Shown piece after piece: positions 9,159 through 12,182 of a stretch of 32,000 nt of DNA (its first letter is position 1; every line of letters starts with the position of its first letter). The stretch covers positions 164,675 to 196,674 of the forward strand of contig JAFGBS010000019.1 in NCBI GenBank assembly GCA_016933055.1, given 5' to 3'. Below the pieces are notes generated by a model. It was not told the DNA's origin and ran no database searches. It saw nothing but the letters and a program-made list of their open reading frames with translations. Both the position numbers and the translations under genes were made by a program. The DNA comes from Promethearchaeota archaeon (GTDB lineage Archaea; Asgardarchaeota; Lokiarchaeia; Sigyniarchaeales; Promethearchaeaceae).

Positions 9159-9216
9159 CAATCTTAAATCGTAAAATTAAAAATAGACCGCTTTTTAGAA
9201 ATCTTGGTGACATAAA

Positions 9217-9432
9217 ATTCCAGGTTCGCATGGTTCACTTACAAAAGCAGGAAAAGTTCGGGGACAAACCCCTCAAGTACCTAAAACAGGCGTCAATTCT
9301 AAGAAGAAGAACATCCCACGGGTACGAAATCGAAACAATTACATAAAACGCATAGTAAAGCATAAGTATGCTGGTCAAGCTACCAGTATGGGTGCTCAAA
9401 AGCATAATCGGAAGGTATCCGTAAGTAGATAA
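9217..9432 (+). CDS. rps30e: Ribosomal protein eS30 (S30e), apparent ATT start; missed by the ORF track
   Basis: Manual translation gives (M)[70 protein letters not shown], containing the eS30 signature HGSLxxAGKVRxQTP. SD-like GGTGA at 9206-9210. In-frame stops at 9196 and 9208 limit the start to ATT 9217. Confidence 0.95.
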
Positions 9433-9521: not shown

Positions 9522-12182
9522 ATGAGCGATAGCATGCAATTGCAAATTGATACATCGAATATTATACGCCAAATAGCCTCTAAACTGCAACTGCGCCCTA
9601 CTTATATATCCAATGCCATTAGCCTAATGGCAGAAGGGGGTACCGTCCCATTCATTGCACGATACCGCAAGGAACAAACGGGTGCTATGACTGAAAATGA
9701 ACTTCGTGAAATCAAAGACTCTTATGAGGATTCTTATAAGCGAGAGGAACTACGAATCCAAGTTCTAAAATCCATTCATCTGCAGGACAAGCTCACTCCA
9801 GAACTCAAGCAGAAAATCCTTACCGCAAAAACTCTTACAGAAATAGAGGATTTATACCTCCCGTACAAACCTAAGAGAAAAACATTAGCCACGAAAGCTT
9901 TAGAGAAGGGGTTAGGTCCTCTAGCTGAAATTATACGAGAAGAGCGACTTGATGGGGACCGGGAGGAAATCTTAAATCGTTTTGTGAATGAGAAAAAAGG
10001 AGTGAAAGACACCAAGGAAGCCTTGAAAGGTGCTATCGATATTATTGCAGAAGATATTGGAAACCATGCAGATTTTCGTAAATACGTTAGGGAAGTGTGC
10101 TTTGAACGCTCCACCATAATTTCTAAAGTCGTTAAAAAATATGAACATCTTTTAAAGGAGAAACAAGAAAAAGAAGAAGATGCTGATGCAGCGGTTCTTC
10201 AAGAAATGATCCAGAAACGAGATGAATTAGAACGGCAAGGTGAAAAGGGTGAAGGGGAACAAACCAATTCCGTGCAAGAAACAGCTTCAAAAACTGAAGA
10301 AGAGGTAGATTTAAGCTCGCACGATTCCATTAAAGCATTAATTAGAAAACAAATGGAAGAGCAGAGGAAAAAAGAAGAGGAGCGGCAGAAAAAATTACAA
10401 GAAGATCTTCTCCGAAAACAGAAAAAAGAACTTAAAGCTGCAGGGCTTATCGATGATATTGAAGGGGGCACATTGGGAAAGAAGGAAGCCGATCCCTTAG
10501 TATTTGAGATGTATTTTGATTTTTCACAGAGCAGCAAGGAAATTCCCCCCCATAGAATATTAGCAATGAATCGTGGAGAAGAGGAAAAAGTTCTTACTAT
10601 TTCGTTGGAGCATCCCGATGAAGAACTGATCAATTATATGTTGAAAGAGACGATTAAGGAGGATATCTCCTTATTTAAAGAGGAGTATGTTAAAGCTGTA
10701 GACTATGGATTTAAAAGGTACATTATCCGTGCAATTGACAGAGAAATACGCTCAGATTTAACCCAAAAAGCTGAAGTGCATGCTATCTCCGTGTTTGCGA
10801 AAAATCTGGAATCTCTTCTTATGCAACCTCCGATTAAAGGGAAAAAGATCATCGGAATCGATCCTGGGTATAGAACGGGATGCAAAGTAGCGATAATTAA
10901 TGAATTTGGCAATTTCTTGGAAGACACTGTCATTTATCCGACTCCTCCAAAAAGTGCCATCGCCCAATCCAAACAAATCATTGCGGAGTTGGTAAATAAA
11001 CATAAAGCTTATACAATAGCAATTGGAAATGGGACAGCTTCCCGAGAAACCGAGGATTTCATCGCTGCTTTAGTGAATATTGAAAAACGTCTGGAATACG
11101 CGATTGTTTCTGAGGCAGGAGCATCAGTTTATTCTGCATCTGAGTTGGCATATGAAGAATTTCCCAAACTAGATGCAACTGTACGTGGTGCAATTTCAAT
11201 TGCCCGTCGTTTACAAGATCCTTTAAGTGAATTAATCAAAATTGATCCAAAAAGCATTGGAGTTGGTCTCTATCAACATGATGTGAATCAGGCAACACTA
11301 AAAAAGCAGTTAGACGCTGTAATTGAGGATTGTGTAAATAAAGTGGGAGTTCTAGTGAACAATGCTTCTTATAAATTACTTGAATACGTTTCAGGTTTAG
11401 GTACAAGACTAGCACGGCAAATTTTCGAACATCGCAATGATAAAGGTCCTTTTAGAAACCGTGAAGAACTTAAAAAAGTAACGGGATTGGGAGATAAAGC
11501 CTTTGAACAGTGTGCTGGCTTTCTCAAAGTCTTAGATGGAACTAATCCCTTGGACGGTACTAACATTCATCCCGAATCTTATTGGGTTGTGGAAAAAATT
11601 CTCGAATTTATTGGAGAGGATTTCAAAATACTTAATGATCCCTCTCGTAAGAAAGAGCTTGCTGAAAAAATCAAACAGCTTCGCCCTAAAGAATTGATGC
11701 AGTACTTGAGACAAGATATCGGTCTTCCAACACTGAAAGATATCGTAATGGGATTAATTCGACCTGACAGAGATCCCCGTGATGATCTCCCTCAACCTAT
11801 TTTGCGTAAAGACATTAAAAAATTAGAGGATTTAAAAGAGGGTGAAATTTTGAAAGGAACCGTACGAAATGTAGTTGATTTTGGTGCGTTTATCGATATC
11901 GGAGTAAAATATGACGGCTTGGTACATATTTCCCAAATGACTCATAAAGATGGTGATAGTCGATACATTTCCAATCCTTTGGAAGTGTTGAACGTAGGAG
12001 ACATAATCGATGTGAAAGTTATCAAAATTAATTTGAAGACCAATCGTATCCAACTGTCCATGAAATTGGACGATACCCTTGAGGGCCGATCAGTGAAATC
12101 CAAAACTTTTGCGCAAGATCAACTTCGTGGAGAAGCCGCCTTTGGTGGCGTGGTGGTACGTAAATCAAAACAGAAGAAATAA
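9522..12182 (+). CDS. tex: Tex family RNA-binding transcriptional accessory protein (Tex-N, YqgF-like, HhH, S1) with a roughly 115-aa charged insertion
   Basis: GGTVPFIARYRKEQTG, EDLYLPYKPKR, IGIDPGYRTGCK, VSEAGASVYSAS, SIGVGLYQHDV and the S1 domain GTVRNVVDFGAFIDIGV are canonical Tex motifs. Confidence 0.96.
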   Translation: MSDSMQLQIDTSNIIRQIASKLQLRPTYISNAISLMAEGGTVPFIARYRKEQTGAMTENELREIKDSYEDSYKREELRIQVLKSIHLQDKLTPELKQKILTAKTLTEIEDLYLPYKPKRKTLATKALEKGLGPLAEIIREERLDGDREEILNRFVNEKKGVKDTKEALKGAIDIIAEDIGNHADFRKYVREVCFERSTIISKVVKKYEHLLKEKQEKEEDADAAVLQEMIQKRDELERQGEKGEGEQTNSVQETASKTEEEVDLSSHDSIKALIRKQMEEQRKKEEERQKKLQEDLLRKQKKELKAAGLIDDIEGGTLGKKEADPLVFEMYFDFSQSSKEIPPHRILAMNRGEEEKVLTISLEHPDEELINYMLKETIKEDISLFKEEYVKAVDYGFKRYIIRAIDREIRSDLTQKAEVHAISVFAKNLESLLMQPPIKGKKIIGIDPGYRTGCKVAIINEFGNFLEDTVIYPTPPKSAIAQSKQIIAELVNKHKAYTIAIGNGTASRETEDFIAALVNIEKRLEYAIVSEAGASVYSASELAYEEFPKLDATVRGAISIARRLQDPLSELIKIDPKSIGVGLYQHDVNQATLKKQLDAVIEDCVNKVGVLVNNASYKLLEYVSGLGTRLARQIFEHRNDKGPFRNREELKKVTGLGDKAFEQCAGFLKVLDGTNPLDGTNIHPESYWVVEKILEFIGEDFKILNDPSRKKELAEKIKQLRPKELMQYLRQDIGLPTLKDIVMGLIRPDRDPRDDLPQPILRKDIKKLEDLKEGEILKGTVRNVVDFGAFIDIGVKYDGLVHISQMTHKDGDSRYISNPLEVLNVGDIIDVKVIKINLKTNRIQLSMKLDDTLEGRSVKSKTFAQDQLRGEAAFGGVVVRKSKQKK

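Follow-up and report, generated by a model that had tools for sequence, protein, structure and literature searches.

Probable initiation of ribosomal protein eS30 at an SD-anchored AUU codon in a Lokiarchaeial genome, one case of a near-cognate start habit that appears lineage-wide

Analysis of a 32,000-nucleotide stretch of a Promethearchaeota archaeon genome (assembly GCA_016933055.1, contig JAFGBS010000019.1, positions 164,675 to 196,674; hereafter the window) indicated that translation of its gene for ribosomal protein eS30 almost certainly starts at an AUU codon. The gene probably reflects near-cognate initiation compensated by the Shine-Dalgarno (SD) sequence and tolerated throughout the lineage, rather than a circuit dedicated to eS30.

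The eS30 gene of the window and its ATT codon

The eS30 (rps30e) coding sequence lies on the forward strand at 9217-9432 and encodes 71 amino acids; its frame is open from the ATT codon (9217-9219) to the TAA stop (9430-9432). Reading of the sequence confirmed the frame given in the preliminary description: TAG (9196-9198) and TGA (9208-9210) precede the ATT in frame, no ATG, GTG or TTG is found in frame before it, and the first canonical in-frame start is Met58 (9388-9390). Initiation at Met58 would produce a 14-aa fragment devoid of any S30 domain, beyond the match to the Pfam S30 family (PF04758) on residues 5-57 (48.9 bits with a cut-off of 27, E 7.5e-13). The product is also matched by S30e chains from the PDB (S. 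solfataricus-type 9fhl_e, E 7e-12) and displays the archaeal M-P N-terminus and an intact HGSLTKAGK core. The sequence GGTGA (9206-9210), read earlier as an SD at normal spacing, is separated from the ATT by a 6-nt spacer, within the 4-8 nt at which SD spacing peaks in the host genome, and forms a duplex of -7.2 kcal/mol with the anti-SD. The in-frame TGA is part of this SD and excludes an upstream start. Readthrough of the TGA was considered and rejected; it gives no start, the next stop upstream being TAG 9196 with no ATG, GTG or TTG in between.

The ATT aligns with the ATG of orthologs, immediately before an invariant Pro2, and occupies the expected Met position, as had been proposed. In the 30S structure of S. 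solfataricus (PMC11698992), Pro2 is the residue expected first in eS30 and makes contact with h44, so the start should lie at the ATT codon. The NCBI protein record (P0001) begins with Met at the same codon. The preliminary description had suggested that annotators would systematically miss such genes; this did not hold for the eS30 gene of the window, since NCBI/nr contains the 71-aa MPGSHG protein called from ATT, but some calls in relatives are wrong. False N-terminal extensions were found in IMG/ENA/Logan calls of eS30 from relatives (P0003, P0004, P0038, P0039), and one IMG call (P0121) lacks the first 7 residues. An exact look-up of eS30 with Ile as residue 1 returned no match.

The gene stands alone between a gene for an AAT-family hydrolase and the gene for Tex. 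No structure was found in the eS30 leader (z +0.98). The neighbouring tex gene (Spt6-like, 9522-12182 on the forward strand) encodes a product in which Tex_N is separated from the central region by a long charged insertion of ~100 aa, and the order eS30-Tex is retained in a close relative (locus L373).

Start codon and SD strength of eS30 across Lokiarchaeia

The codon before the invariant Pro was tabulated in 145 distinct Lokiarchaeia loci from genomes and metagenomes. ATG was found at 110 of them, ATT at 24, ATA at 4, ATC at 3, GTG at 2, TTG at 1 and ACG at 1. All 145 loci thus carry ATG or a codon with one mismatch to it; an ordinary internal codon would vary otherwise, which argues that this position is the start. 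ATH codons (ATT, ATA or ATC) account for 31 loci (21%) and ATG for 76%. No in-frame canonical codon exists upstream of the ATH in 28 of the 31, and 3 have one. L. ossiferum is an ambiguous case, with a TTG in frame three codons upstream of the ATT. The first-codon comparison suggested earlier for Asgard archaea gave a divided answer: ATH recurs within Lokiarchaeia, but eS30 starts with ATG in Promethearchaeota AMARA_1, the closest GTDB relative of the host and a member of the same genus, and the codon is ATG, GTG or TTG in all 35 non-Loki Asgard loci. MK-D1, a cultured member of the same family (Promethearchaeaceae) as L. ossiferum and the host, also has ATG. Two eS30 matches were observed in a few MAGs (G030, G273, G018), and two aIF1 matches in G030, suggesting contamination or duplication.

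The start codon was found to covary with the SD. An SD duplex of -6 kcal/mol or stronger was present at 30/31 ATH loci vs 42/110 ATG loci, and the median duplex was -9.2 kcal/mol for ATH and -5.0 kcal/mol for ATG, in both cases counting related loci that are not independent. The eS30 gene tree required 13 changes of start state, at least 6 of them forced by well-supported branches. In non-overlapping sister contrasts, the near-cognate side had the stronger SD in 10/10, a count taken from a gene tree of 200 nt that includes weak branches. An independent-pairs test restricted to supported branches, underpowered with 6 pairs only, was not significant (median p of 0.25 at -6 kcal/mol and 0.06 at -7 kcal/mol). 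These comparisons suggest that start codon and SD strength probably trade off, and that the eS30 state may drift in both directions.

Two alternatives to initiation at the ATT were weighed against these data. The ATT could be an assembly error, or the gene could be dead in a lineage lacking eS30; the window comes from a single MAG and one G-to-T base change would suffice. We regard this as extremely improbable. In a second study (a 2017 hot spring metagenome), a 225-nt contig spans 9092-9316, including the eS30 start, with 0 differences, which refutes an assembly error; the 23-kb contig assembled from what is probably the source run is likewise identical, although not independent. Two RNA runs of the same study gave no matching sequence and were counted neither for nor against. 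Thirty-one loci carry ATH, a closed genome among them. Only one eS30 copy was found when a second intact one was sought in the 3.76-Mb assembly (91% complete), and the gene differs from its closest ATG-started copy by 33 synonymous and 5 non-synonymous codons, pointing to purifying selection on the ATT-started gene. The other alternative involves the out-of-frame three-codon micro-ORF at 9204-9215, which is present as previously described. Ribosomes starting at its TTG or GTG (9204/9207) could slip by +1 at its TAA into the eS30 frame, or re-initiate after it, and a shift at that stop would indeed lead into the correct frame. This route would add residues ahead of Pro2, and its TTG and GTG sit inside the SD without an SD of their own. 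A micro-ORF upstream of eS30 occurs at 8/18 ATH loci, being missing from 10, and at 6/66 ATG loci, in varying frames. Since neither position nor frame is conserved, a role as a uORF or in translational coupling was rejected. The micro-ORF is present because GTG and TTG lie inside the SD, and we judge it to be a by-product of the SD sequence; the chance that eS30 is translated through it is minimal. Near-cognate initiation at the ATT, as first proposed, is strongly supported by its position, its recurrence, the SD compensation and the signature of purifying selection.

Near-cognate starts in other genes and the initiation machinery

Among about 45 ribosomal proteins inspected in the host genome, only eS30 and uS12 were ATT-started. 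The uS12 gene (contig C22, 43178-43621, forward strand) has its ATT behind AGGTG, as it does in AMARA_1. Elsewhere in Lokiarchaeia, uS12 starts unambiguously with ATH at 5/31 loci, and 6 more have their sole GTG inside the SD. Copies from other genera use ATC, ATA or ATT, always with a GGTG SD that is mostly absent from ATG copies (L193-L222). Analysis of the S10-spc clusters of 40 Lokiarchaeia (L333-L372) revealed genes with no canonical start in some genomes: uS14 (10/40), uS8 (4/41, one with ACG), uL15 (3/37), and also uL22, uL14, uL6 and eS4. Each was preceded by an AGGTG/GGAGT-type SD. No genuine near-cognate case was found for 11/17 genes of the cluster in about 32-41 genomes. The affected genes differ by genus: g15 often combines an ATT on eS30 with an ATG on uS12, whereas in g9 uS12 and uS14 are affected instead. 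uS8 seems split or stop-interrupted in six genomes (G028, G039, G048, G050, G054 and G058), perhaps through frameshifts, insertions or assembly faults.

Near-cognate starts were not confined to ribosomal proteins. Over the whole genome, 18 ATH codons that precede the first canonical codon lie behind a GGTG-type SD, where 6.1 were expected (p 3e-4); for CTG the count was 4 against an expected 0.3. Inspection by eye of 541 ortholog pairs between the host and AMARA_1 gave about 6 near-cognate starts in the host and 11 in AMARA_1; from these sequences, about 1-2% of conserved genes in the two genomes would have such starts. A one-sided ortholog test on these same-genus genomes, which misses shared ATH starts, detected 0/123 and 1/124 ATG-to-ATH swaps. 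Candidates behind GGTG-type SDs, named from their N-termini, include an aldehyde ferredoxin oxidoreductase (ATT), a NifB/NifX-like gene (ATA), an NAD epimerase (ATA in the host, ATC in AMARA_1), a P5C dehydrogenase-like gene (CTG), a Zn-ribbon protein (CTG in the host and AMARA_1), a TrmB-like gene (ACG) and small GTPases; they lie on host contigs C15, C17, C28, C36, C2, C5 and C6. In L. ossiferum B35, Rpo1N (L454) has no canonical start before its conserved N-terminus, and AGGTGT is followed by ATC at SD distance. Pro (CCN) or ACN is often the codon next to AUH in eS30, uS12, uS14, uL22 and aIF1. This is possibly a context effect or else a detection bias; uS3 and uL22 also begin with M-P and are nearly always ATG-started. 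AUH starts therefore look like a lineage-wide habit of Lokiarchaeia, with eS30 as one case among several genes.

The initiator tRNA and the anti-SD of the host were found to be canonical. The 3' end of its 16S rRNA is intact (GGAUCACCUCCU), and the initiator tRNA has A1:U72, three G-C pairs and a CAU anticodon, so that an altered initiator tRNA or anti-SD was rejected as the cause. The intron-containing tRNA-Ile(UAU) (contig C17, c122375-122500) has elongator features. A search for the TiaS_FLD family in 41 Lokiarchaeia genomes found no member, with 4 control archaea positive; Lokiarchaeia may decode AUA in a eukaryote-like manner without agmatidine.

Loss of aIF1 was also rejected as an explanation. 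The factor was found in 50/61 genomes, and the host has a separate gene for it. This aIF1/SUI1 gene (contig C6, 28144-28455, forward strand) has itself no canonical start before the Cys knuckle, and an ATA lies behind GAGATGA. The aIF1 start is ATH at 26/31 Lokiarchaeia loci, including the host, and many follow a conserved AGGTTGTGA; in other Asgards it is ATA, CTG, GTG, TTG or ATG. In S. solfataricus, aIF1 disfavours AUU relative to AUG (PMC4705826), and in P. abyssi it favours mRNA binding led by the SD (PMC6237735). The aIF1 gene is the best candidate in the host for an autoregulation resembling that of infC.

Proposed mechanism, competing explanations and known systems

We propose that GGUGA pairs with the anti-SD of 16S rRNA, which would pre-position the 30S subunit with AUU in the P site. 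The duplex would hold AUU there long enough for the ordinary Met-tRNAi (CAU) to be accepted with two pairs of three and a mismatch. Met would be inserted and then removed, and mature eS30 would begin at Pro2, like other archaeal eS30. A strong SD of the GGTG(A)/GAGNTGA type could allow a gene to tolerate a change from ATG to ATT, ATA or ATC, and also to CTG or ACG. The output of eS30 would probably be near that of a weak-SD ATG copy. The level of AUU initiation is probably set by aIF1, itself apparently AUA-started in the host; if an AUH start makes aIF1 self-limiting, stringency would come to rest at the point at which AUH starts with a strong SD function, and further genes might then drift into the AUH state. 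In this scheme eS30 would be a passenger, and a passive sensitivity to aIF1 is plausible. Two observations do not sit easily with the scheme: aIF1 blocks AUU complexes in vitro, yet eS30 is stoichiometric and needed in quantity, and pure drift does not obviously predict that eS30, uS12 and uS14 are AUH-started far more often than most ribosomal proteins.

This excess, poorly explained by drift, leaves an opening for a regulatory reading in which aIF1 autoregulates via its AUH start and AUH is selected on the decoding-site proteins eS30, uS12 and uS14 so that their synthesis follows stringency. The prevalence of ATH on aIF1 in Lokiarchaeia, the ATA, CTG, GTG or TTG starts of aIF1 in many other Asgards and the restriction of ATT to eS30 and uS12 among the host ribosomal proteins are compatible with it, as is the location of the eS30 N-tail at h44 beside the A site (PMC11698992); infC and eIF1 provide precedents. 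We nevertheless consider it unlikely. If an eS30 circuit were under selection, its start should be conserved, and this is not seen: the ATH state of eS30 is a minority that flips within genera, g15 and g9 show opposite combinations of eS30 and uS12 starts, the same starts occur on metabolic and membrane genes, and in cultured MK-D1 eS30 and uS12 start with ATG, and aIF1 with TTG. The S. solfataricus 30S structure paper (PMC11698992) describes no start-codon-rejecting role for eS30, which also has no established role in P-site codon selection. The earlier suggestion that eS30 synthesis is coupled to start-codon stringency is thus unsupported as a conserved device, given the ATG in most loci including the sister, the 6-13 switches, the AUH starts of other ribosomal proteins in other genera and the uniformly canonical non-Loki loci. 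A broader form appears equally doubtful, namely a 'stringency regulon' of Lokiarchaeia set by aIF1, in which a self-limiting aIF1 would be accompanied by a shifting, co-varying set of strong-SD AUH genes that repeatedly includes eS30 and uS12. Such a regulon, if it existed, would parallel IF3/eIF1 control in archaea and would in addition adjust the supply of small-subunit proteins. A rare ATT start acts as a damper in E. coli pcnB. By analogy with pcnB and ebpA, the ATT of eS30 could be a selected constitutive damper fixing a lower output from an over-strong SD or promoter. The inverse covariation of start codon and SD strength fits this reading, and eS30, standing alone between its neighbours, would need its own tuning; against it, compensated drift would leave the same pattern in the sequence. 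We rate a damper as very unlikely, and retain SD-compensated, lineage-wide tolerated initiation at AUU as the preferred explanation.

If a fifth of Lokiarchaeia start an essential, stoichiometric ribosomal protein at AUU, near-cognate codons anchored by an SD would be accepted efficiently by their initiation machinery. This bears on the origin of strict AUG selection toward eukaryotes, where the SD was lost. The eS30 genes of sister species provide natural AUG/AUH allele pairs for comparing the contributions of SD and aIF1. In these genomes, ab initio gene callers would assign wrong N-termini to some 1-2% of conserved genes.

ATT starts in bacteria offer several comparisons. ebpA and pcnB are single exceptions in their genomes, whereas in Lokiarchaeia ~1-2% of conserved genes would be concerned, including several ribosomal proteins, alongside initiation factors of eukaryote type. 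Enterococcus faecalis ebpA (PMC4447247) and pcnB resemble eS30 in having an ATT start with an RBS and in being mis-called by gene finders. Like the host eS30, infC (E. coli IF3) combines an AUU on an essential translation gene with an SD and the initiator tRNA (PMC4705826). The AUU of infC is conserved and its product is a stringency factor, whereas the AUU of eS30 is labile and eS30 is no known start-codon monitor. Autoregulation of the infC type goes with a clade-wide non-AUG start, whereas eS30 is mostly ATG-started and has switched repeatedly, and with a product that rejects non-AUG starts, a role that belongs to aIF1 (PMC4705826), encoded by a separate gene. The true infC analogue in the host genome would therefore be aIF1, with its ATA start, rather than eS30.

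Within archaea, Lokiarchaeial eS30 shares its family, Pro2 and core with the S. solfataricus-type eS30 of TACK/Asgard archaea (PF04758, PMC11698992), and differs from it by a length of ~70 aa, a basic insertion, a longer tail and the AUU start. Ribosome profiling of Haloferax volcanii revealed pausing at near-cognate starts, ~30% of putative alternative sites (PMC7261190). Those sites are alternative ones that the authors set aside as possible false positives, whereas the AUU of eS30 would be the sole start. Reviews name AUG, GUG and UUG alone as archaeal start codons, and searches of open-access papers for a survey of such AUH starts among Asgard archaea found none, but one incidental case, atubA of Kariarchaeaceae (PMC13394414). 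As in eS30, an ATT at RBS distance is needed by the conserved N-terminus of atubA, according to sequence and structure inference; it concerns one Heimdallarchaeia gene, was called rare and was mentioned in the methods only, with no lineage survey or SD covariation (PMC13394414). The present analysis contributes the series of 145 eS30 loci, with its repeated switching of the start codon and its covariation with SD strength.
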